A DNA stretch of 64,000 nucleotides from Podarcis vaucheri (taxonomy: Eukaryota): NCBI GenBank assembly GCA_965113315.1, contig OZ220364.1; one strand, written 5' to 3'. The position numbers and the translations under genes were made by a program. Shown piece after piece: positions 43,994 through 58,800 of this stretch. The notes under the pieces were generated by a model. That model made no database searches. It saw only the letters and a program-made list of their open reading frames with translations, and had not been told where the DNA came from. Each line of letters opens with the position of its first letter. Position 1 is the stretch's first letter.

Positions 43994-45759
43994 AAATTAA
44001 CAGGGGGGGAACTGAAGCCAAGAACTGTTCACAACATATCCTGATCATGGAAACACCACCATGAATACCTTGTGCCCTGTTGGGAGATGGTTTGTATTTT
44101 GTGGAAAGCCAAGAGCAAGGAGGGGGAGGCGGCGTGGGGGGCGCCAAGGGAGCTGTGTCACCCGCAGGTAATCTGTGCGCCTTTAATCTTCCTCGCGGGC
44201 TCACGGCTCCATCCACCTGCACCGCGTCTCAGCTCGCCGATTGGTATAATGGAACCACATATATTTAGAGAGCACGAGCAACACACTGAGAGGGAGCCTC
44301 AGCTAAAAATATCCATGTGCACAGAGAGATGCAAAGGTGACGCCGAAGCTGGAGAGTCAGATAAAAGGGAAGCTTTCTGTGCGCTGGAAAATTAACATTC
44401 CAGGGCCACGTCACTTTGTGTGCGGCTTCCTATGAGCTTTCCCCTCCCATCGCCACCCCCCTCCCTGGCTTGCTGCCTCCCTCCCACCCACTGCTGAACA
44501 ATCCATCAGGTTTGGAAATCAGGCTGGATGGCACAAGGCACCATCCTGTAATTTCCTTTTAATAATAGATCACAGGAGGATGGGCTCAGCAGCCTTCGCC
44601 TGCTCTTCTGCCTCCTCATTAGCTTTACTACACTTGCTCCATTTAGAAACCAAGCGCAAATTAATGGAGCACTAATCATCTGCAGAAGAGATATTAATAG
44701 TGTGGACCCCCCTCCTCACCCACAGACACCTTTCCTCAGCTTTCACCAAGCTGTTCCAGAAAAGGGGGGAAACGAGCCTCCTCTGTGTGGAGGAATTAAC
44801 AGGTGAGTGCTGGCAGGATACGGAACATCCTGGGCCTGTTTTGCATCTGCCGTAAGGGGCAAAGCACCAGGTAGGCAGGGGCAGGCAAAGGAGATTATTG
44901 GTGTGCGTGTGATTGTCTGCAAGAATTATTGATGTACTGTAGCTTCTTCACTTTGAGACAGTTGCTATATTAGTTTTGTACTTTCTGTGGCAGACCACAT
45001 GTTTCCTGTGCAGAAGAACACGGTCCCACGTTCAATTTTCAGTATCTCTAGTTAGAGACTCTAAGCGCTGAGGCTGAAAAAGAGCATCAGCTGAAACTCT
45101 GGAGAGTGGCTGTTAGTCAGGGGAGATACTATTCAGCCACTGATAGGATGGAGGACCAAACGTGAAGCCTTCAGTGTGTGGTTGCCATTTACATATCTTT
45201 CATTTTAAGAAGAAAAATGTGAAAAAGAAAGAAACAGCTACAGGAGCCCCCAATCCCAATTAGAACTGAAAAGCATGAGGGTGTTAACTCTTGCAATTTT
45301 TCTCCACCCCCCCTCACTATTATCAGCGCTGGATTTAGGGTGGTTCCCCCGCACAGGGCGCTGTGCGAAGGGGGTGCAAAATAACAAATAACAACAACAA
45401 AAAACCTATTTATTATATAGGGAGTGGCCCCCAAAACACTTCTTGGGGCAAATCACAGTTTGGGATGAATTATTTTATCAGCAAAACTGTGCTGGGGTGA
45501 GAGAAGGATTAGTTCCCCTCCACTGTACCAGAGTCCTGATCTAGGCTAAGGCTCCCACAGGTGCTATTTTTCTATTTTAAAAAAGTTGAAAGATGTGCAA
45601 CTGTGACCACACATTTACTTTGTGGTCCTACACATTTCTACTCTGTCTGAATTAAATTCTGTGTAATTCAATGGAGCTTACTCTCAGGTAAGTGGATATA
45701 AGAGTGCAGCCCTAACGTATTATCTATTTGGCCTTCAGCATAGAGAGCAGTACAGCATA

Positions 45760-46448
45760 GAGAGCAGTACATGTGAAAAGGATCTAGGAGTCTTGGTTGA
45801 CCACAAACTTGACATGAGCCAACAGTGTGACGCGGCAGCTAAAAAAGCCAATGCAATTCTGGGCTGCATCAATAGGAGTATAGCATCTAGATCAAGGGAA
45901 GTAATAGTGCCACTGTATTCTGCTCTGGTCAGACCTCACCTGGAATACTGGGTCCAGAGTTGGGCATCACAGTTCAAGAAGGACACTGACTAACTGGAAC
46001 GTGTCCAGAGGAGGGCAACCAAAATGGTCAAAGGCCTGGAAATGATGCCTTATGAGGAATGGCTAAGGGAGCTGGGCATGTTTAGCCTGGAGAAGAGGAG
46101 GTTAAGGGGTGATATGATAGCCATGTTCAAATATATAAAAGGATGTCATATAGAGGAAGGAGAAAGGTTGTTTTCTGCTGCTCCAGAGAAGCGGACACGG
46201 AGCAATGGATCCAAACTACAAGAAAGAAGATTCCACCTAAACATTAGGAAGAACTTCCTGACAGTAAGAGCTGTTTGACAGTGGAATTTGCTGCCTAGGA
46301 GTGTGGTGGAGTTTCCTACTTTGGAGGTCTTTAAGCAGAGGCTTGACAACCATATGTCAGGAGTGCTCTGATGGTGTTTCCTGCTTGGCAGGGGTTGGAC
46401 TCGATGGCCCTTGTGGTCTCTTCCAACTCTATGATTCTATGATTCTAT
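45760..46448 (+). mobile_element. 5'-truncated CR1 LINE (end of ORF2 plus 3'UTR)
   Basis: [48 protein letters not shown] peptides with an in-frame stop; (ATTCTATG)n-type tail. Confidence 0.93.
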
Positions 46449-47296
46449 AAGGTGGCTTCATATGTTCCTGGCTGCACTTTGCACAGGAAGCCAAAGGAAG
46501 AAGCCACAAATCCCAACTGTAGCCCAAAACAACTGCTCTTGCAGGTAGCAGGCCATATATTAGTACTTTAGGTCTGAACTGTTCAGACATGCATCCCATT
46601 ATCCCCAGCCAGTTTATCCAATGGTCACAAATGATGGGAGATGTGGTCCAACAATATTTGGGGACCACCTTAGAATAACAAGAGATCACCCTTCACCTTT
46701 CCTTGGACAAATGAAGGCCAGATTTATATGTGTTCTTCCTTCACAGAATCATGAAGGAAACAAACTGATGTTGTGGTGGGGCTTGGCTAGTGAGTCACTG
46801 CTACTTATTGGGAGGGGCACAGTGGTGGTGAGCTGCAAAAACACCAGTGGAGTTCAGTTTGGAACTCCTCCCAGTGCATTTGCATGGTATTGCCCTTCCT
46901 TGTCCCTCCCTCTCCAAGTAAGCAGCGGCAACTCACCTGCCAAGAGGTCAGGTAATGGCCTCCATCCCACCACACTGTCTGCTGCTGACTAGAAATGTTT
47001 TGTCAGAAGACCTGTAAACAGAAAACTACATTCTTCCCTCCTACCTAGGGATCATTCCAGCACAATCCACATGTGCTACATGGATTCCTTCACTGTTCTC
47101 CTTCTCATGAAGAATAATGGCCATAGAATACACTTATTTCCTCTAGAATTGTGTTTCCTCTCTGCAGTGGGCTCCCAGAACCAACATATTGCCAATGACA
47201 GTATTATAGTTGGAGAAAGATACATGCACAATTTGGAAGTTGTGACCCAGAGTAAATTTCCCACAGTGACACAGAGAATCCCACGGCAAAGTGTAC

Positions 47297-47470
47297 CTGA
47301 AAAAGCTCGGAGTCATCTGTACTGTACTGGCTGGACTCTGTTTCAGAGTGCTCGCAACACCACTGCAGCTCATTGAAGCAACTGGCTGAGTCAAAGTCAC
47401 CGGCATCCAACTGGGACAAATCTATCTCCGGGAAATCAGAGTAGAGGTGTTCCTCACCAGACACTTCATA
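47297..47470 (-). CDS. PPARGC1B: PGC-1beta exon 2 ([22 protein letters not shown]...DDSELFQ), 174 nt
   Basis: cag| acceptor, |gtacac donor, phase 0/0; peptide matches the PGC-1beta N-terminus. Confidence 0.96.
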
Positions 47471-49797
47471 CTGTGGATGTAAAAGAGAAAAGGATGGTGA
47501 GCTTGGCTGGCTTGTGAATCCTCGGAAAAACCAAATGACGTCAAATATAATCACACATGCCTTCACAAGGTGTAGATCAGATCACTGGTGTCTTTAAGGG
47601 GTGTCCAAATGGTACACAATAAAAAGCCACACTAACGTGGAGCTAAGAAACCAAAGTCCAAACCTTCCTAAAACAAAGAGGATTTAAAACCACTTGAAGG
47701 CAGGCTGCCACCTGTAGAAAGCCTTCAAGCTCGAAAAAGGCAACAGTTCCACATTTTGTTTATTTACTGAGGTATTTTTAGCCTGTTCTTCAAAAGAATT
47801 CCTTTTACAACAAAACAAAATTTTATAAAATAACCACACTGAAACTAAAAAAAGCAAATTAAAGATGGCAGATATAGTTCTAAATGACTCCCAGTGGCTC
47901 TTTTTCTGACCTGACCTGGTATTACTGATGAAAGGGGATACAGAAATGTTTTAAATAAATACATAAAATTACTGGGAAAATACAACTGAGAGCAGTGTGT
48001 AGTAAGAGTTGTGCCTCTGAAGCAAGCATGTACTGAAGGACATGAATGCTGTAAAATGAGGCATTTCCTGCCCCTCCTCCAATGTATTAAAACTAAAAAT
48101 CCTGAGATTATTTTTCTTTTCCGCATTATTACCTGCTGGTGAATTATAATTATGTCTTACTGGCTTGTCTGCAAGATCAGAATTTAGGTCTATTCTTCTC
48201 ATCCCCCTTCTTAAATTAGAAGTGACAACTTGTACCTGATTGTGATTATTATTTTTGCCGACTTTGAATATGTGCATCAATGCCATTCAAAAGAAACTGA
48301 AGGATAAAGCAAAACAGAGCACTTTCTCCACACTCAACATCTAGTATTTCCATTTGGGAATGATGCTGCAACCTTGGCCAGCTTCGCAAGAAATGCTTGG
48401 GTTTTGTATTTCTAGTACCAACATGATAATACCCTATTATGCAGATTCTAAGATTAACATTTCTGTGCTCTTGGAAATATCACTCCCGCTACCTTCTAGT
48501 GTGCGAGAGGCCAAGCCCCCTGGAGGACAGCCCAGATGCTTTGTTTCCCCATGGCAAAAAAGGAGGAGGAGGTTACTGGTGGGTGACTGACAATATGCAT
48601 CTTTCAAGTCTGTCTCTGTTCAAAGGAACAGGAAAACACCCACCCACCTACCAGCAGATCACTCAGATTAAATGGCTGCATTTCGAGGGACAATCTTTCA
48701 AAATGAATAATGCCCGTTTGATGTATAATTACAAAGATGTGCTTGTGGTGGTTTGCTTTGTTTTGTTTTTCAAGTTCAGAGGAAACAGACATTTTCAACT
48801 TTTCTTGGGACAGTTCCCTTGCTCATGGATCATCACCATGATCCATTGCTAGCCTTCCACGTCCATCTCAAGGTGGTGTACAAATTATACTAAAAACAGC
48901 TAAGGAGAGTTATAAAAATAGCAGAAGACCAGTTCAACCACTGGTGATCTCCTCAGGCAAGACAGACAGTCAGACACACACACACAGACGCCCCCGTACA
49001 CCACCAGAGCAGCTGCATGGCTTCTTAAGGGACACTTAAGCTACTCCAGCCTTTAGTGACGTAATGCGGACATCCAAGGCTTATACTAGTGCCCTGATAG
49101 CCAGCAATTAGGAAGGAAAGGAAGAGGCTTATAGGGTACACCAGACAGTCACGAATCAGGTAAGGCTCTGTAACAGAGGCCTGTGTGCATCTGAAGGTGG
49201 CACTTTTGGCCTGCTGTGCATTCTGGGTCCTGACCACCCCTAACCTCCCCTTTCTTTCTCAGGCCTTCCAGCCCCAGCTCCATTCATCAGCTAAACTTAG
49301 CTCCGCCACGCTCTTGGCAGTGGCAAGCAGGCCTTGGAGCTTCAATATTTCCTCATACCCGTGGCAATCTCTCCTTATAGAAACAAGTTTCTCCAGACAC
49401 CAATTCAATAACAGCTCTAACAATCCATTGTATTCTTCCCCTGCTCCTCAAGCCCAGCCAAAACGAGAGTATAATAGAGCAGAATCAATGGCTGGCGCAT
49501 GTAAGGCAATCTAAGCTCTAAGAACTGAGCTAAAAATATCCAGTCAATCACACAGAGCAGCTGAGACCCGGCCCCATTTCCACCACATTCTCAAGGCATA
49601 CGCAATTGCATTAAACTCCCAACACGGTCGGCGAAAGCGAGTGACCAAGAAGGACACAGTAATGCTGCACTGCACCATTACTGCTAAGCCTACCAAAGGT
49701 CACAGATATGCTGGGGGATGCGGCTTTCGAAGGTCCACGATGCACAAAGGCGGGGGAGGGGGAGGACTGTGATACAGAAGACAAGGCCTGCTCAGAT

Positions 49798-50256
49798 TAG
49801 GGATGGATGAGGGAGAAGGTAGGCTGTCTGGGCTGAAAGGTGAACCTCCCTACTTTGCACTTCCCCAAAGCAGTACACAAGACAGAAGCACAGTTATCCT
49901 CGAAAATCTGCACTCTCCGAATTTTCCAGTGCAGTTCTGCAGCCAAGTAACATGTACTTAATATATACAAAAATGTATATATTAGTAGAACTGACATGGG
50001 TGGTGATGGCAGGTGTGTGTGTGTGGGGGGGGGAATCCATTGTACTAGGAAAATTCCTTTGCAAAAAACCTGTCTCTTAGGCAAAACCACTTACAAAAAT
50101 GTGTCTACTAGTTGAAATTTGCACAGAAATGCTGGTGAATCTTTATGAAACCCTTTTAAAAATCACCATCATCACAAACTGATGTACAAATGTGGGGAAC
50201 AAAACATAAGATTGGAAAAATGAGAAACCTGAAATTGACATATGGGCCCATCCCTA
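49798..50256. mobile_element. Non-autonomous hAT-like element (TIR TAGGGATGG...CCATCCCTA)
   Basis: 9-bp inverted termini; degenerate 8-bp TSD (GCTCAGAT vs GCTCAAGC once the LTR element is removed). Confidence 0.6.
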
Positions 50257-50257
50257 G

Positions 50258-50710
50258 TGTCAGGGAACTGACATCGGAGGAAAGGGAAGTGGTAAGGCTC
50301 CCAGAGACTGGGAGAGAGTCAACAGCCAAAGCAGGGACCAGCAGGGGGAGCGCGGGGTCTCTGGAGGAGGATCTCAGTAATGCTGAGAGACACGCAGCAG
50401 CCCAGGCAGGAAGCAGCAGGGGAGAGAAAGGGGTGAGAGACACTTCGAGCGAAAATAGCGGGGAGGTGTCAGAAGCAACTGCCGGGAGACCCATGCTTCG
50501 CCGGAAGCTGCCACGTCGTGAGTCCAGGAGACGCGTTTCCGTTAAGGAACTTCTTTGCTGGAAGCGCTTCCGCAGACAGCCACTGTCAGACTCTACTAGT
50601 GACTAGAGCAGACATGTCTGAGGAGCTCTGTCACACACAGAGGTTTGTGGGGTCGCACAAACTCTGAAGGGGCACAATTTTAAGCACAAGCAGCTAACCA
50701 TCCCCTGACA
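50258..50710 (+). repeat. 5' LTR (453 bp)
   Basis: Direct repeat of 55377-55829; one difference seen (C50391 vs G55510); 8-bp terminal inverted repeats. Confidence 0.97.
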
Positions 50711-50712
50711 GC

Positions 50713-50723
50713 AGTCTGACAGT
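50713..50723 (+). promoter_or_regulatory. Self-priming primer-binding site (AGTCTGACAGT)
   Basis: Exact reverse complement of LTR 50582-50592 (ACTGTCAGACT); no TGG tRNA-type PBS follows the LTR. Confidence 0.8.
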
Positions 50724-50755
50724 CTCTGTACGCTGCCTGTGCAGGAGAAAGCATC

Positions 50756-51766
50756 ATGAGCAACCCAGTCGGAACCGGAGACGCAGGGGTTGGAGCTGGT
50801 CCAAGCTTGGAAGAAAGGTATCAAGCTCTGGAGGTCCAACTTGCGCTGCAGACGGCGAGGCTCGAGGAGAGAAGGGCTCAGGATGCTGACAAAAAGGGGA
50901 GAACCACTCAGTTCCCCAGAAAGGTACCAGGACTGGTGCAGAAGTTTGGGGGGGACCCCAAGGATTACCATGCCTTTAGGACTGAGATGCAATATGCTCT
51001 GAATGTGCAGTTTGATGAGTTCCCTGATGAGGAATCGCGAGTTGCGTTCGTAATTGGGCATCTTGAGAAGGGGGCGCGGGACTGGGTTCGACCCCTGATG
51101 GCAACGCACAACGATATCCTAAAGGACACTATGAAATTCTTTCGTGCAATGGATATCATGTTTTCCAGCGATATTGAGGAAGGGGTGGTACGCAGACAGC
51201 TAATGGCTTGCAAGCAGGGAAGCAGATCTGTCCGTGAGTACTGGACTGAATTTACCATGCTGATTCACAGATTGGGGTGGGATTTATCGGCGGCACCCAT
51301 TCAGATGCTATTTGAAGAAGGTCTTTCTTCAGCTGTGAAAGACGAGCTGGCCAGGAGCCCCAGGGCGGGGTCTATGGATCAGCTGACCAAATCTGCGCTG
51401 ACCATTGGAGCGCGCCAGGAGGCAAGAGCCTTGGAGAGGCGGGAAGGGAGAGGGGAACGTTGGAAGGAGTTACGCATTCCAGACATTCCTGAGCCAGCTT
51501 TCCCGCCGGCAGAGCCGATGGAAATCGGAACAGCCCGCGCGCGCGCAGTTTCAAAGCCCAGTGAGGGGGCGAAGAAGGAGGGAAAGGGAGCCCGGAAATG
51601 CTATCTCTGCCAACAGCCAGGCCACTTTGCCAGAGTCTGCCCCCAGAGGAAGGAATGGCAAGGGATGGTGGGAGCTGTTGAGGGGGAAGAGCAGGGAGAA
51701 ACGGAGCAGGTAAAAGCCAACGCCTGGTTGCCAGCAGGGCACTGCAGCCAGGCCAAAGAGCAGTGA
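50756..51766 (+). CDS. Retrotransposon Gag (capsid-like domain plus CCHC zinc knuckle), 336 aa
   Basis: ATG 45 nt after the 5' LTR; PEG10/sushi-like KFGGDP..RVAFVIGHL.KGARDW and KQGSRSVREY segments; CYLCQQPGHFARVC knuckle. Confidence 0.95.
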   Translation: MSNPVGTGDAGVGAGPSLEERYQALEVQLALQTARLEERRAQDADKKGRTTQFPRKVPGLVQKFGGDPKDYHAFRTEMQYALNVQFDEFPDEESRVAFVIGHLEKGARDWVRPLMATHNDILKDTMKFFRAMDIMFSSDIEEGVVRRQLMACKQGSRSVREYWTEFTMLIHRLGWDLSAAPIQMLFEEGLSSAVKDELARSPRAGSMDQLTKSALTIGARQEARALERREGRGERWKELRIPDIPEPAFPPAEPMEIGTARARAVSKPSEGAKKEGKGARKCYLCQQPGHFARVCPQRKEWQGMVGAVEGEEQGETEQVKANAWLPAGHCSQAKEQ

Positions 51767-51774
51767 AAGTGCCC
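51709..51774 (+). promoter_or_regulatory. Putative -1 ribosomal frameshift signal (G_GUA_AAA plus H-type pseudoknot)
   Basis: Heptamer in the gag frame, 6-nt spacer, stem 1 at 51722-51731/51744-51753, stem 2 at 51737-51743/51768-51774. Confidence 0.72.
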
Positions 51775-54700
51775 CTTCCCCAAGTGCCAGTGCCAGAAGC
51801 TCCTCGACCTGCTCTAGTGATTGAAGTGTCTCTAGAGCTGCAAAATGGACACCCCCTAAAAATAAAGGCGCTGTTGGACTCAGGCAGCTCCTGCAATTTC
51901 ATGAGCAAGGAGTTTGCTGCTGAGCACCAGATACAGACTATCCCTTTAAGCAACCCCCTGCAGGTGACCACGATTGATGGCAGGGAACTGTTGGGAGGAG
52001 GCGTCAGCTTGCAGACCGTCCCAATGATAATGAGGGTGGCAAGGCACACAGAACTGATAGCGTTTAATGTGGCCACCTTGGGAGGCGCTCCCATTATTTT
52101 GGGAATGAGCTGGCTAGCCCTACATGATCCGCTGGTGGGCTGGCATCAAAGAGTGGTTTCCTTCGGTTCCGCACACTGCTTAGAACACTGCAGGGCGGAA
52201 AAGGGGTCAGCAGGGGCCCAAGCCACCCTAGCAGGGACGGAAGTGATGGAGAAGGGGAAGGTGCCACCACAGTATGCTGATCTCAGCGACGTGTTCAGCG
52301 AGAAGGAAGCGGACCAACTACCCCCGCATAGGCCCTTTGATTGCCAGATCAATTTACTCCCTGGAGCACAGCTTCCTGTAGGCAAGTTGTATGCCATGTC
52401 AGACAGGGAGATGCAGGAGTTGCGAGCGTTCATTGACAAGAACCTGAAGAGAGGCTTCATCAGAGAGTCCAAGGCAGCGGGGGGTAGCCCAGTGTTTTTT
52501 GTGGATAAAAAAAACACGGACAAGCCGAGGCTGGTATGTGACTTTCGGGCCCTAAATGCAGTGACAGAGCCGGCGGCTTTTCCTATGCCCAGGATTGATG
52601 ATATTTTGACCAGGGTGCGAAAAGGAAAGATTTTTACAAAGCTGGACCTAAGGGGGGCGTACAACCTGATACGTATAAGGAAAGGGGATGAATGGAAGAC
52701 CACCATGTTCACCCCTTTGGGGGCATTTGAATACCTCGTTATGCCTTTTGGATTACAAACAGGCTCCGCGTGTTTTCAAGCCTTTATGAACCATGTACTG
52801 GGGCCTTTGCTCTACAAGAATTGCGTGGCCTTCTTAGATGACGTGTTGGTGTATTCGGAGAATGAGGAGCAACATGTGAGAGACGTCAGAGAAGTGTTGA
52901 GCAGGCTGCAAGCCAACAGACTGTGGGTGAAACTGGAGAAGTGTCAGTTTCATACCAAGGAGGTGGAATTCCTGGGGTACCGCTTGTCAGACAAGGGGTT
53001 GGCCATGGACCCCGGCAAGGTTCAAGCGGTGCTGGAATGGAAAACACCCAAGACCAAGAAGGATGTGCAGAGGTTCCTAGGGTTTGGAAACTTTTATCGT
53101 AAGTTCATCCGAAACTTCGCCCACCTGACGGCGCCCATCACGGACTGTCTCAGCAGCAAAAAGAAGTTTGTTTGGACGGGGGAGGCGGAGCGAGCGTTTG
53201 AGGAACTGAAAAGGGCCTTCGCCTCTGACGAACAACTTCTACATGTGGATTTACAAAAAAAGCTGAGGGTCGAAACAGACGCTTCTGACAGAGCCATAGG
53301 GGCGGTGCTTCTTCTGCAGCCGGGGAAGGAGGGGTCAGAGTGGCGACCGTGTGCCTTCTTTTCGCGAAAGCTGAACAAATCTGAGAGAAACTACACGGTG
53401 CACGACCGGGAACTTCTTGCGATTTATGAGGCCTTCCGGAGATGGAGGCACCTACTAATTGGTGCACAACAGAAGGTGCAAGTGTGCACGGACCATAAGA
53501 ATCTAGAGTATTGGAGAACTGCGCGAGTGCTCAACCAAAGGCAGTTGAGATGGGCCCAGGAGTTCTCCAAATTTAACTTTGAGATTTGTTACGTACCAGG
53601 CCCGGAGAACGTTAGGGCGGACGCTCTCTCACGCAAACCTGAATATTTGGAGGGAGAGGGTGCACCCGAAGAGACCCATGTTATTCCCGAGGACCGCTGG
53701 GTGTGTGGGGCGGCTTTGGTGGGGCAAAGGGAACTGGTAGAGGGAACGGTGCAGGATGAATACGCCCAGGACAAACTCAGGGGTCTCAGGAGGGAGGGAG
53801 ACAAACCCGGGGGTTTTGAGGAGAGAAACGGGGCGTTGTACTACAAGGGAGTGTTATACATACCTGAAGGGGAATTGAGGGAAAAGGTACTCAAGCAACT
53901 GCACGATAGCCCCACAGCAGGGCATTTTGGGCAACACAAAACCATGTGGCTGGTTACCAGGGAATTCTGGTGGCCCAAGGTCAGGGAAGATGTGCGTGAA
54001 TATGTGAGAGGGTGTGACCGATGTCAACGAGCCAAGGGGGAGAGGCGGGCACCGGCAGGTTTATTAGAACCACTACCCACGCCGGAAAGACCATGGGAGG
54101 CAGTGGCAATAGATTTCATGACTGATCTGCCCAGGTCCAAAGGGAAGACAGCCATTATGGTTGTGGTAGACCTGTTAACCAAGATGGCCCACTTTATAGC
54201 CTGCTCACATGCGGTCACAGCAGAAGAAACCGCTAAATTGTTTGTGGAAAATGTGTTTAGGTTGCATGGTGCCCCCTTGAGGGTGGTTTCGGACCGAGGG
54301 AAACAATTTACTTCCAGGTTCTGGAGGAAGCTCATGAGCTTATTGCATGTAGAGGTGAATTTTTCCACTGCCCGTCATCCAGAAACCAATGGGCAGGCGG
54401 AAAGAACTAATGGTGTCCTCCAGCAATATTTGAGGTGTTATGTGAATGACAGAGAGAATGATTGGGTGGAGAAGCTGGCGTTGGCAGAATTTGCCTATAA
54501 CAATGCAGAGAACGTGTCCACGGGGATGAGCCCTTTTTTGGCCAATCACGGGTGTCATCCCCGAGCCTTCCCAGGGGGGGAGGGGGAGAACTGGAGCGTT
54601 CCTGCCGCAGAACAGTTCGTTGAAGAAATGGAAGCGATCCATCGCCAGCTCCAACTTAATTTAAACAGGGCGAAGGAGGAATATAAGAGGCAGGCAGACA

Positions 54701-55725
54701 AAACCAGAAGGGAAGGGGAAAGCATTAGGGTGGGGGACCAGGTGTGGCTGTCCACCCAAGGGTTACCATTTAAAGGAGGTTGTAAGAAGTTAAGACCCAA
54801 AAGACTGGGCCCATTTGAAGTCACGCAACAGGTCAACCCAGTGGCTTTCAGACTCCGGTTACCGAACCACATGAAGTTGCACCCAGTGTTCCACAGATCA
54901 TTGCTGTCACCGTATATAGGGGACAGAGAGGGGAGGGTCAATAGGGGACCAGCTATGGAGGAAAAAGAACACAGCTACCATGTAGCGGAGATTCTCGATT
55001 CCAGGTGGAGGGGAGAGCAAGTAGAGTATTTGGTAATGTGGGAAGGGGAGCCGGAGTCGGAAAACACCTGGGTCAGGGCAGAGGATGTAGATGACGAGGT
55101 TTTGATTGAAACTTTTCATCAGAGATTCCCTAGAAAACCCCAGCCAGTGGCAAGGTTCCGGAGGGAATACTTCGCCACCACCGACGACGAAGAAGAGTTG
55201 GAGGGGTTCGCTGATTCCGAGGTGGAGGAGGATTCAGCGAGTCGGAACGAAGACCGATGGAGGGAATTGTTCGAGACGTCTGAAGATGAAGAGGATTCTT
55301 TTAGGGGTTTCAGCTCCTCACCGCCCAGAGGAGAAAGTAGGGGCGGGGGAGAGGGGGGCCCTGGAGGGGAGGTGGATGTCAGGGAACTGACATCGGAGGA
55401 AAGGGAAGTGGTAAGGCTCCCAGAGACTGGGAGAGAGTCAACAGCCAAAGCAGGGACCAGCAGGGGGAGCGCGGGGTCTCTGGAGGAGGATCTCAGTAAT
55501 GCTGAGAGAGACGCAGCAGCCCAGGCAGGAAGCAGCAGGGGAGAGAAAGGGGTGAGAGACACTTCGAGCGAAAATAGCGGGGAGGTGTCAGAAGCAACTG
55601 CCGGGAGACCCATGCTTCGCCGGAAGCTGCCACGTCGTGAGTCCAGGAGACGCGTTTCCGTTAAGGAACTTCTTTGCTGGAAGCGCTTCCGCAGACAGCC
55701 ACTGTCAGACTCTACTAGTGACTAG
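51763..55725 (+). CDS. Retrotransposon Pol (protease, RT, RNase H, integrase, chromodomain, acidic/basic tail); frame open from 51682, probably entered by -1 frameshift
   Basis: LLDSGS protease; MPFGL and FLDD (RT); ETDAS (RNase H); H..H..CDRC and D-D-E integrase; GPF motif; chromodomain YHVAEILDSRWRGEQVEYLVMWEG..ENTW. Confidence 0.96.
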   Translation: MKVPLPQVPVPEAPRPALVIEVSLELQNGHPLKIKALLDSGSSCNFMSKEFAAEHQIQTIPLSNPLQVTTIDGRELLGGGVSLQTVPMIMRVARHTELIAFNVATLGGAPIILGMSWLALHDPLVGWHQRVVSFGSAHCLEHCRAEKGSAGAQATLAGTEVMEKGKVPPQYADLSDVFSEKEADQLPPHRPFDCQINLLPGAQLPVGKLYAMSDREMQELRAFIDKNLKRGFIRESKAAGGSPVFFVDKKNTDKPRLVCDFRALNAVTEPAAFPMPRIDDILTRVRKGKIFTKLDLRGAYNLIRIRKGDEWKTTMFTPLGAFEYLVMPFGLQTGSACFQAFMNHVLGPLLYKNCVAFLDDVLVYSENEEQHVRDVREVLSRLQANRLWVKLEKCQFHTKEVEFLGYRLSDKGLAMDPGKVQAVLEWKTPKTKKDVQRFLGFGNFYRKFIRNFAHLTAPITDCLSSKKKFVWTGEAERAFEELKRAFASDEQLLHVDLQKKLRVETDASDRAIGAVLLLQPGKEGSEWRPCAFFSRKLNKSERNYTVHDRELLAIYEAFRRWRHLLIGAQQKVQVCTDHKNLEYWRTARVLNQRQLRWAQEFSKFNFEICYVPGPENVRADALSRKPEYLEGEGAPEETHVIPEDRWVCGAALVGQRELVEGTVQDEYAQDKLRGLRREGDKPGGFEERNGALYYKGVLYIPEGELREKVLKQLHDSPTAGHFGQHKTMWLVTREFWWPKVREDVREYVRGCDRCQRAKGERRAPAGLLEPLPTPERPWEAVAIDFMTDLPRSKGKTAIMVVVDLLTKMAHFIACSHAVTAEETAKLFVENVFRLHGAPLRVVSDRGKQFTSRFWRKLMSLLHVEVNFSTARHPETNGQAERTNGVLQQYLRCYVNDRENDWVEKLALAEFAYNNAENVSTGMSPFLANHGCHPRAFPGGEGENWSVPAAEQFVEEMEAIHRQLQLNLNRAKEEYKRQADKTRREGESIRVGDQVWLSTQGLPFKGGCKKLRPKRLGPFEVTQQVNPVAFRLRLPNHMKLHPVFHRSLLSPYIGDREGRVNRGPAMEEKEHSYHVAEILDSRWRGEQVEYLVMWEGEPESENTWVRAEDVDDEVLIETFHQRFPRKPQPVARFRREYFATTDDEEELEGFADSEVEEDSASRNEDRWRELFETSEDEEDSFRGFSSSPPRGESRGGGEGGPGGEVDVRELTSEEREVVRLPETGRESTAKAGTSRGSAGSLEEDLSNAERDAAAQAGSSRGEKGVRDTSSENSGEVSEATAGRPMLRRKLPRRESRRRVSVKELLCWKRFRRQPLSDSTSD
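55363..55376 (+). other. Polypurine tract
   Basis: GGAGGGGAGGTGGA immediately before the 3' LTR. Confidence 0.75.
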
Positions 55726-55829
55726 AGCAGACATGTCTGAGGAGCTCTGTCACACACAGAGGTTTGTGGGGTCGCACAAACTCTGAAGGGGCACAATTTT
55801 AAGCACAAGCAGCTAACCATCCCCTGACA
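55377..55829 (+). repeat. 3' LTR (453 bp)
   Basis: Direct repeat of 50258-50710, followed by TSD CCTAG. Confidence 0.97.
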
Positions 55830-58800
55830 CCTAGCTCAAGCAAAGGTTTCTGCAAAATTGTGCCATCGGGCACTACTGACATCTATACCATGCTCAGTGT
55901 AAGGAAGAAACTCTATCTGATGTATAAGAATTTTGCCAACGTTATGACTCCAATTTGTTTCAGTGACATGTGACATGTGATTTTATTGTTCATATTTGAA
56001 TGCTGCTCTTCCTCCAAGACATTCAGGCCAGCATACATGGCACTATCATCTCTTGCAATCTTCAAGTCAACCTTGTGAGGAATGTTAAAACTGAGTAACA
56101 CTCTCATGGCTGAGCGGAGATTTGAATCCAGAGTTCCTCAGTTCACCAGCTAGACTCCATTAGCTGAATTGGACAGACTTGAACACCAAGATTTCCTGCT
56201 TCTCCACAAATGCTTTTTATCTAGCAAAGTACAGCACCGACTGGGAAATTTTTGATCCCAATTTTGCTGGCATCAGTACGTTTACAGTGTTCACTGAATT
56301 CAGCGAGTAGGGTCAGCACTCAGTCCTGCCTTTCTGAGCCAACAAACCCATTCCAGGCAAGCCACCATGGAGCTGGTAGATGATAAAAGCCTTTGTCCTC
56401 ATAATGACCAAGACTAGCATTCAAAACAACCACCAGATAAATGAAAATTCATGAAGCCCTTTTATGTGAAGACCTGCTGATCTTTGGGAGCTTCCTAACA
56501 ATGGGGAGAGCAAATATATTTGTTTTGCATTTAGCTCTCAACTCACAAGATCAACTGAGCATTTGAGAAGCCGTAATGAGAGAATAACATCCAAGGCACT
56601 GCTTTGAAGTTTTCCAAATAGTCTCTCTAGGACTTAACAATCAATTTTCACAAGAAGTTACAGAAACGAAAGAGACAGCATCTCCCCCTCTCCACCCCCT
56701 TCGTTCTGTCTTTATTAACTGGATAATCTCAGATTATAGGGCTTGTTTCCCGCAGGAATGGGACTTTATGTCTTCTCTGCGTTTTCCAATTTAATTTAGG
56801 ACACAGTCTCCACTAACAGTAAATGGTGGGTCCTCCCGCACCTTCTGTACTAGGTGAAAGAAAGGGCAAATGGACCTCAGGTTACGAAGCAAAGGCTGTA
56901 GGGAAGGGTCAGTCTTGGGGCAAGGAAGAGGCCTGGAGACTGGCAGAAAGAGAAAATCGCAATGGAAGAAGGTTGCAAGCTGACCTCCGCCCAACCTGTC
57001 CAGGGCAGGGCAAGCTTCTACCAAGCCACATGGAAAAATGAGCGGATAGGGACTTTTCACGTTATGGAGACACACATCATTGCCAACTAACATCTGCATA
57101 AAAAGCAGCTGCTAAAAGCACTTCAGTGACTATTTGAAAAGGTGGCTACTGGAGGGGTGTGTGGGGAAGCTGGTGGATCCGGAGACTTTTTCTAATCTGC
57201 TACCTTTTCACACACTTCCCTTACTGCATTGTGCATGCAACACACATTTTAGCACTGTTATTTTCTGAAGGAAGTGCGGTTTAGAATCTGCGCAGCCCTT
57301 AAAAATAATTGCCTTTAACCCATCTTGGATTGAGATGGAATTGTTATCATATTGTTTCAATTTACAGTCTAACACAATGTGCTCATGATGAAACTCTCAT
57401 ATAAACCCCAAGGGATTTGCAGGAGATGCATGCTGACAGATCTGTATCTTGTAGCTTTGTTCCGAACCCTTTGTTGCTCTCCCTTGCTCCATTTGTCCAC
57501 AATCCCCTAGTACAAATTGGGTTACTCACCTATTTCCTATTGGGGACCTCTCACCCAGGAACAATACCACCATGGCCCATTTTGGCTATGAGAAACTGTT
57601 CAGTAATTTGCCTGGCTTAATGGTTAATCCAGCCCCCAGTTAGATTCCGATTTCCATCAATATATCTGATTGTCCAGGCCCCCAGCAAATGTATGTTTTC
57701 ATCAAATGCTGTGTTTTTCTTCAAATCTTTCTCAGGGAGTAGAGGTAGACATATTTATTTTTAGAAAAACTTTGAATATGCATTTGCAATTCATACACGA
57801 ACTTCTGCAAAACACTCAGATTCCTCAGTTGTCTTTGATATGTCACTAGGGAAGAGATCCCAGCTCTGCAATCACAAGGTGCAGCTGACGCTAGCACTTG
57901 GGATGTCTTTTGATAATCTCTACAGACGTGACACCTCCCCACTGCCAACAGAATTGGGTATAAATAAACTCCTGCAATCCAATGCCTCTTTGGGCTGCCT
58001 ACATGGCATGCTGAGTTCAGCAGCAAGATTCAGATGGTGCCCTGGCAATGCCATGTTGTTCAAGTCCAGCTCAAGGGTCACCTGGGAGACAAGCAATAGG
58101 GCAGCATACTCCTCAGTGCATGTATGAATCCATCCCAAATCTTCCAAACAACTGTCTGACTGATTGACTCTGGAGGAAAGATTAATGTTTCGGTTATGAG
58201 TGGATAAGTGACATAAATCATCACAGGAAACAGCCACCTAAATCTGTTGATATCACAATAGCTCTCTTGAGAACCAGAACCCACTTTAACCATGTCCTGT
58301 GATACACAACCCACTTTTCTATATTGTTGTTGTTCCTACTGCTACTACTGTATACATCTGTATACAGTAGTATACCTCTTTCCTCTTAATATAATTTGAA
58401 CATCGGGGGGGGGGGGGTAAAGTTAAATGGTGTTGGCACCACTGATGGGACCACTTGAGGTAAAGGCAAGGCCTACTTGAGAGTCCTCTTCCCCTATGGG
58501 CTGAACTACATGCTAGTTGGGGATGATAAGAGCAGAATGCTAGCAATGCCTTGAGGTCCTCAGTTTCTGCATCTTAGACCTTCAGAGTTAAATAAAGGGA
58601 TTCTCTCCAAGCTAATAGTGAGTGCCATTCAGCTGGGGCAGCATAGCCAAGAACTGGACTGGTTAGTTCTGTCAATGAGGTATGTTTCAGTTGCTGGAAG
58701 GATATCTAAATACCAGTTTCCTTCCTCCATTGCTTTGGAAACAAGAAGAAATACACATCTTTGGCTGCATGCCTTGGAAGAAGAAGAACTGAAGCACTTA

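Follow-up and report, generated by a model that had tools for sequence, protein, structure and literature searches.

The integrases of Ty5 and MLV have C-terminal targeting motifs, and lentiviral integrase engages LEDGF/HRP2 through a folded pocket in its core dimer; LEDGF is the protein with which HIV locates active genes. Ty1 integrase holds its tether, TD1, inside a bipartite NLS, according to the accessible part of PMC10050235. Host proteins such as JPO2, PogZ and MLL1 bind LEDGF/HRP2 through TND-interacting motifs (TIMs). The accessible text of PMC9987994 defines a TIM by an obligate helix, an acidic linker of 8-16 residues with CK2 sites and an optional FxGF; the FxGF is present in all known LEDGF/HRP2 TND partners, and several proteins contain two TIMs in series. 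Drosophila JIL-1 has the same motif (bioRxiv 10.1101/624023, as far as its accessible part goes). Among chromoviruses, pol runs on into the 3′ LTR in every group A CRM element (PMC3059260), and read-through is described for CRM and for Bingo1-4/7 (PMC3605345), both sources being accessible in part; an earlier note on the DNA studied here, which held such read-through to be unusual for chromoviruses, is not supported on this point.

The window, a 64,000-nucleotide stretch of Podarcis vaucheri contig OZ220364.1, contains a complete retrotransposon whose features are listed in Table 1. The domain order between the LTRs, gag followed by PR-RT-RH-IN, fits a Tf1/sushi chromovirus (Metaviridae), as does a self-priming site in place of a tRNA primer site: an 11-nt complement is present, and the primer site and its LTR partner covary across four sequence types (an 11-nt match in 13/18 elements, 7-10 nt in 3/18 and none found in 2/18). 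As a whole, the locus is best explained, by a modest margin of confidence, by an integrase tail with two TIM mimics that would use LEDGF/HRP2 as a tether to H3K36me3 chromatin and a basic end that would serve as an NLS.

Table 1. Features of the retrotransposon in the window and of its integrase tail.
Feature	Coordinates	Strand	Remarks
Complete Ty3/gypsy element (Tf1/sushi-type chromovirus)	50258-55829	+	
5′ LTR, 453 bp, TG...CA	50258..50710	+	Preceded by CCTAG target-site duplication at 50253-50257
Self-priming primer site	50713..50723	+	Complementary to LTR offset 325-335 (50582-50592)
gag	50756..51766	+	Retrotrans_gag, CCHC knuckle
pol frame, -1 to gag	51682..55725	+	Protease, RT, RNase H, integrase, SH3, chromodomain, tail
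Chromodomain	54976..55125	+	Incomplete aromatic cage (third position Glu); omega 0.21
TIM-like motif 1	55153..55209	+	Helix-Phe, 8-residue acidic linker, LxGF; FxGF in most relatives; omega 0.19
TIM-like motif 2	55258..55311	+	W-x3-F, then an acidic linker of 9 residues bearing S/T sites of CK2 type, then FxGF; omega 0.24
Purine tract, with the PPT end at 55376, and att end of the LTR	55342..55389	+	Translates as Gly/Glu-rich sequence; constraint at DNA level
3′ LTR, 453 bp	55377..55829	+	CCTAG directly after, at 55830-55834
U3-encoded disordered spacer	55390..55557	+	Near-neutral sequence, in-frame length changes, pLDDT under 50
U3-encoded Ser/Glu/Pro segment	55558..55611	+	Purifying selection, omega 0.23
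U3-encoded basic segment	55612..55695	+	Bipartite NLS consensus and invariant Cys-Trp in predicted short helix
Predicted start of R (self-priming partner)	55701..55711	+	Overlaps last pol codons

The single pol frame contains no stop before its end and crosses the PPT and 115 sense codons of the 3′ LTR, which begins within an Asp codon; the pol stop at 55723-25 lies inside the LTR, and all of these coordinates agree with the earlier note, the protein ending nine residues beyond the basic run cited there. The two LTRs differ at one base (C50391/G55510), and this difference is, as claimed, non-synonymous (His versus Asp) and leaves the frame open. The U3/R border placed at 55701 corresponds to the start of the 11-nt primer-site match, and is a prediction from self-priming rather than a mapped start.

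Young and diverged copies both show that preservation of the frame exceeds chance. The 203-residue tail is intact in 30/30 young copies, which are the best DNA matches and near identical. Older subfamilies were sampled with four protein queries and 40 fetched stretches, yielding 79 distinct places, a sampling that favours intact tails. The LTR start could be located in 72/79 of these, with 61 reading into the LTR, 48 of them by at least 60 codons. The tail is kept as far as the Cys-Trp (CW) motif in 45/79 places, compared with 54/79 that have the 150 integrase codons upstream of the tail undamaged, so that the two stretches decay at a similar rate per codon. The distance from the LTR start to CW is in the phase of the window in 41 of the 44 places with all anchors (10/13 distinct lengths), whereas the distance between CW and an anchor placed in the LTR's non-coding end is distributed 28/9/7 over the three phases; 80 places were examined, 36 of them without an anchor. 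A Pfam search of the tail, with E up to 1, returned no family. In a structure model the chromodomain alone folds confidently and the tail is mostly disordered.

The chromodomain at the integrase C-terminus matches PF00385 with 45.3 bits, over the cut-off, and its best PDB match is HP1. In the alignment to HP1 the third position of its methyl-lysine cage is Glu, and among 75 places there is an aromatic residue at the third position in none and at the first in three; it thus departs from the group I (caged) chromodomains, which have three aromatic cage residues. Because it is still under selection (Table 1), a point that weighs against the tethering account proposed below, it likely keeps another role.

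Between the chromodomain and the PPT is a stretch previously described as a D/E-rich tract, a description that is too coarse, as the tract consists of two repeats of a specific TIM-like layout: helix-Phe, acidic linker and (F/L)xGF. Motif 2 has FRGF, and motif 1 has LEGF in the window's subfamily, with Leu for the first Phe, and FxGF in most others. The linkers, of 8 and 9 residues with 5-6 acidic positions and two CK2-type sites each, fall within the 8-16 residues with S/T of TIM linkers. Alongside human JPO2 M1/M2, PogZ and MLL1 the element's motifs have the same anchors, with linkers of 8-9 versus 8-14 residues and 5-7 versus 4-6 acidic residues. The motif 2 anchors F13, F23, G25 and F26 are invariant in 30/30 rows at a mean identity of 56%. 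The invariant Phe has a hydrophobic residue 3-4 positions upstream; a free-chain model places a four-residue helix in motif 1 and none in motif 2, at a pLDDT of about 50.

A regular expression for this layout, composed after the motifs had been seen, matches 3/4 host controls, 73/79 diverged places (50 of them twice) and 7/20000 tail shuffles. Over the window's six frames it has a single match, with motif 1 missed (Leu for the first Phe), and it matches 20/25 lizard-clade proteins and 0/278 other proteins, the latter being largely PSIP1 orthologues and chromodomain proteins. In a tree from which rows aligned over <230 residues were left out, the motif-bearing rows form one clade (21/43 rows, support 100/99, midpoint root) that reaches down to 56% integrase identity; P0132 and P0155 lie inside it with degenerate motifs, and its deepest member has one motif. 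The motifs share with host TIMs (JPO2/CDCA7L, PogZ, MLL1 and IWS1, and fly JIL-1) a putative helix-Phe, the acidic S/T linker, the FxGF, the arrangement of two in series and the setting in a disordered region, as described in the accessible parts of PMC9987994 and 10.1101/624023; they differ in that they sit on a retrotransposon integrase, are predicted binders, and have LxGF in the first copy in the window's subfamily.

We propose the following course of events, each step of which is conditional. The mostly disordered tail of ~200 residues would stay on the integrase after protease processing, and the linkers of both motifs would be phosphorylated by CK2. The two helix/acidic/FxGF motifs would then mimic host TIMs and bind the IBD of LEDGF or HRP2, the presence of two presumably giving avidity, and the PWWP domain of LEDGF/HRP2 would bring the integration complex to H3K36me3-marked transcribed chromatin. 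This tether would stand in for the cage-less chromodomain, with the U3-encoded basic end acting as a bipartite NLS around the conserved Cys-Trp. We regard binding of the motifs to the TND (IBD) of LEDGF or HRP2 as probable, and consider the further prediction, that this binding steers insertion, to be evenly balanced.

The host has PSIP1- and HDGFL2-like IBD exons, and the lizard IBD is identical to the human at 74/82 residues. A complex prediction of the Podarcis LEDGF IBD (P0169 400-486) with motif 2 (33 aa), run without controls and without alignments, scored 0.22, under a mark of 0.34, and counts neither for nor against binding. Young copies are evenly spread along C1 and C10 (KS p 0.50 and 0.31), and there is no excess of them on the smaller chromosomes as a group (98/289 on the first four contigs listed). 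For a strong bias these sites range from neutral to mildly unfavourable, and they do not point to a strong preference for gene density. Older subfamilies cluster on C41, a 41-Mb contig (about 57/90 rows, counted by hand, versus 0/40 of the youngest matches), which may reflect retention on a non-recombining chromosome; C41 is possibly a W chromosome.

The even spread along C1 and C10 fits a different account, which we consider rather unlikely, in which the motifs are real TIMs acting outside site choice. They would bind LEDGF/HRP2 or another TND protein (IWS1, TFIIS, ELOA or MED26) and stabilise the integrase, promote nuclear retention or assist transcription of the new copy, possibly on a tail released by the protease. 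TIMs bind many TNDs and act mostly in elongation, as the accessible text of PMC9987994 has it, and the tail is disordered and long enough for processing. However, the FxGF is tied to LEDGF/HRP2-type TNDs (PMC9987994; 10.1101/624023), the motifs are placed where other retroelement integrases carry targeting motifs (PMC10050235), and they accompany loss of the chromodomain cage; these points, taken from the accessible parts of the three sources and from the alignment, argue against this account.

It is also conceivable, with a still smaller likelihood, that the acidic-aromatic motifs bind something else, such as histone H2A-H2B or, on the element's side, a basic surface of its integrase. Acidic DEF/Y-type histone-chaperone motifs bind H2A-H2B and have the layout of an acidic tract followed by an aromatic residue, which the repeats share. 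A PDB search with the motif region as a single sequence gave 0 matches, and a profile search with motif 2, at E up to 10, gave no host TIM and chance-level matches only, a result that is in keeping with a partner of this kind; the likeness to host TIMs, as judged from the sequences, is one of pattern and not of alignment score. Against such a partner, the invariant Gly-Phe after the aromatic residue and the invariant Phe 8-9 residues upstream are TIM features that chaperone motifs do not need, and we continue to favour mimicry of host TIMs.

Selection on the tail was estimated by a GY94 likelihood fit to 33 open copies, namely the 34 whose frame is open as far as the common end, less one in which a frameshift is compensated; the copies are thus preselected for that frame, and the searches favour intact tails. 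Omega is low in the chromodomain and in both motifs (Table 1) and is 0.70 in the linkers around the motifs. The PPT/att segment has an omega of 0.72 with a synonymous rate scale of 0.52, which is the expected DNA constraint. Within U3, the middle is near neutral (0.75), the Ser/Glu/Pro segment is constrained (Table 1), the basic segment has an omega of 0.24 (p 3e-15 against 1, with shifted frames at 1.5 and 2.2), and the last nine codons 0.40; across the constrained segments the shifted frames range over 1.5-2.3. A counting method gave the same selection pattern as GY94. The basic segment also contains two-step synonymous codon switches (Arg AGR/CGN, Ser AGT/TCC and Leu TTA/CTT). With the low omega, these codon-family switches and the in-frame length changes in U3, the extension is a protein under selection, including its U3-encoded basic end, and the test of U3 by dN/dS that the earlier note had proposed thus comes out in favour of protein-level selection.

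The idea that the extension is incidental, with purine- and CpG-rich promoter DNA that happens to lack stops coding Glu, Gly and Arg by chance, draws on the purine content of U3 (58-80% in its first 250 bp), its CpG richness near the basic codons, the near-neutral middle and the loss of the tail before CW in all but 45/79 diverged places, but is hardly credible, being already contradicted by the low omega of two U3 segments (0.24 and 0.23, against more than 1.5 in their shifted frames), by the codon-family switches and in-frame lengths, and by the similar per-codon decay of the upstream integrase, itself intact in just 54/79.

A narrower version, in which CpG/ETS (CCGGAAG-type) promoter words, which the basic end overlaps, would give rise to it as a side effect, was rejected on the omega values, the codon-family switches and the in-frame lengths. 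The synonymous rate scale of the basic U3 segment is 1.66, compared with 1.70-1.85 in the non-LTR motifs; since its synonymous sites change at about the rate of those motifs, the basic codons hardly look constrained as promoter, and the earlier suggestion of dual-use promoter/coding DNA is not supported as it was worded. The U3 of this LTR evolves mainly as protein-coding DNA.

The classical bipartite NLS consensus is two basic residues, a spacer of 10-12 and three basic residues out of five. The window fits this by inspection, and the consensus is found, without a shuffle control for comparison, in 33/44 tails of at least 140 residues, with (C/G)W in 38/44 of the same tails. C243 and W244 are invariant in 29/29 aligned tails, and the Cys-Trp survives in the distant P0064; a model helix spans 238-245 over this segment at a weak pLDDT of about 58. 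We think it reasonably likely that the basic end serves as a bipartite NLS around the conserved Cys-Trp. By analogy with Ty1 integrase, in which the tether to Pol III lies within a bipartite NLS, the CW helix may be a second docking site. The prior proposal of an NLS-like or chromatin-tethering module survives as the best reading of the extension, with the amendment that the likely tether is the pair of motifs before the PPT and not the U3 DNA.

Comparison with the described systems places these features. The accessible parts of PMC3059260 and PMC3605345 describe plant group A CRM elements in which, as here, pol crosses the PPT into the 3′ LTR and a conserved module lies there. However, in those elements a CR motif replaces the chromodomain, whereas the lizard element has its chromodomain upstream of the PPT, followed by the TIM-like motifs and the basic/CW module, and is therefore not of the CRM type with its CR motif. 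The integrases of Ty1, Ty5 and MLV resemble it in having a short motif on a long disordered tail with a bipartite NLS at the end, but their partners are Pol III AC40, Sir4 and BET, and these modules are not encoded across the PPT and U3. Lentiviral tethering through LEDGF/HRP2 would involve the same predicted host domain and a predicted bias to active gene bodies (PMC9987994, accessible part), but the lizard element is a member of the Metaviridae and has a short linear motif in the C-terminal tail of its integrase. Closest in overall organization are the Tf1/sushi (V-clade) elements of fungi and vertebrates, which the accessible part of PMC6317226 describes with the same Gypsy domain order, chromodomain, self-priming and 5-bp duplication; the fish and fungal relatives examined differ in having short tails, some with SPEY/F or SEEF ends, and no TIM-like motif.

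Pol read-through and an integrase tail with a host-docking motif are thus both known already, and what is new is the predicted reach to the lentiviral cofactor by mimicry. We found no report of a TIM-like motif in a retrotransposon integrase in the open literature, and subscription journals, Repbase and the supplements of TIM papers may hold a mention. Tethering by LEDGF is regarded as a property of lentiviruses, and its use by a retrotransposon through a linear motif would, if true, clearly exemplify both convergence and the mimicry of a host motif by a mobile element; it would also offer an answer to how chromoviruses with cage-less chromodomains are targeted. More tentatively, and with a little less than even confidence, we suggest that a vertebrate Ty3/gypsy clade independently hijacked LEDGF/HRP2 through tandem TIM mimics as the cage was lost, moving from heterochromatin reading to H3K36me3 gene bodies, with a second partner on the U3-encoded Cys-Trp helix.

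Of 172 proteins screened, 11 of fish type extend 10-25 residues beyond a Gly-rich PPT-like stretch to a SPEY/F-like end, so that these relatives seem to show a short read-through past the PPT. Fish-type integrases (P0039, P0048, P0052, P0079, P0094 and others) end in a conserved SPE(Y/F) (13/150 proteins) or in SDRSEEF, and this end may represent a further docking motif at the C-terminus or, at the level of DNA, a word of the promoter.

The exact 54-base PPT-LTR junction of the element has 289 matches in this genome and the family is therefore young and abundant; its named relatives are all from Podarcis. Of the matches, 120 are forward and 169 reverse, a larger imbalance than expected. In a few cases two of them are separated by the length of one element (for example C17 34689973 and 34695092), which suggests tandem copies with a common LTR. 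Target-site duplications tend to S-N-W-N-S, with A/T at position 3 in 28/30 (L001-L030), in a sample biased by the first flank base of the query. The candidate -1 frameshift site at 51710-51716 varies by subfamily, with G-GTA-AAA in the window and G-GGA-AAC in others (L099, L101 and L104), the latter form being one that we take to be PEG10-like.

The LTR has neither AATAAA nor TATA, and a conserved TTA(C/A)GCAC(A/G)AG(C/T)A (55799-55812 in the window), which every subfamily has ~20 bases short of the end of the LTR, is a candidate 3′-end or promoter signal. Contigs of four sequencing runs, which we guess to be RNA, cover the element piecewise with 85-99% likeness, and starts, strand and level are not readable from them. 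Upstream of the element, frames at 45667-46278 resemble what we take to be a decayed CR1/LINE reverse-transcriptase end, with no match in a Pfam search of that region. A Pfam search of the minus-strand open frame 47204-47581 likewise named no family; this frame is presumably an early exon of PPARGC1B (PGC-1beta), in which case the element lies antisense in the first intron of that gene.
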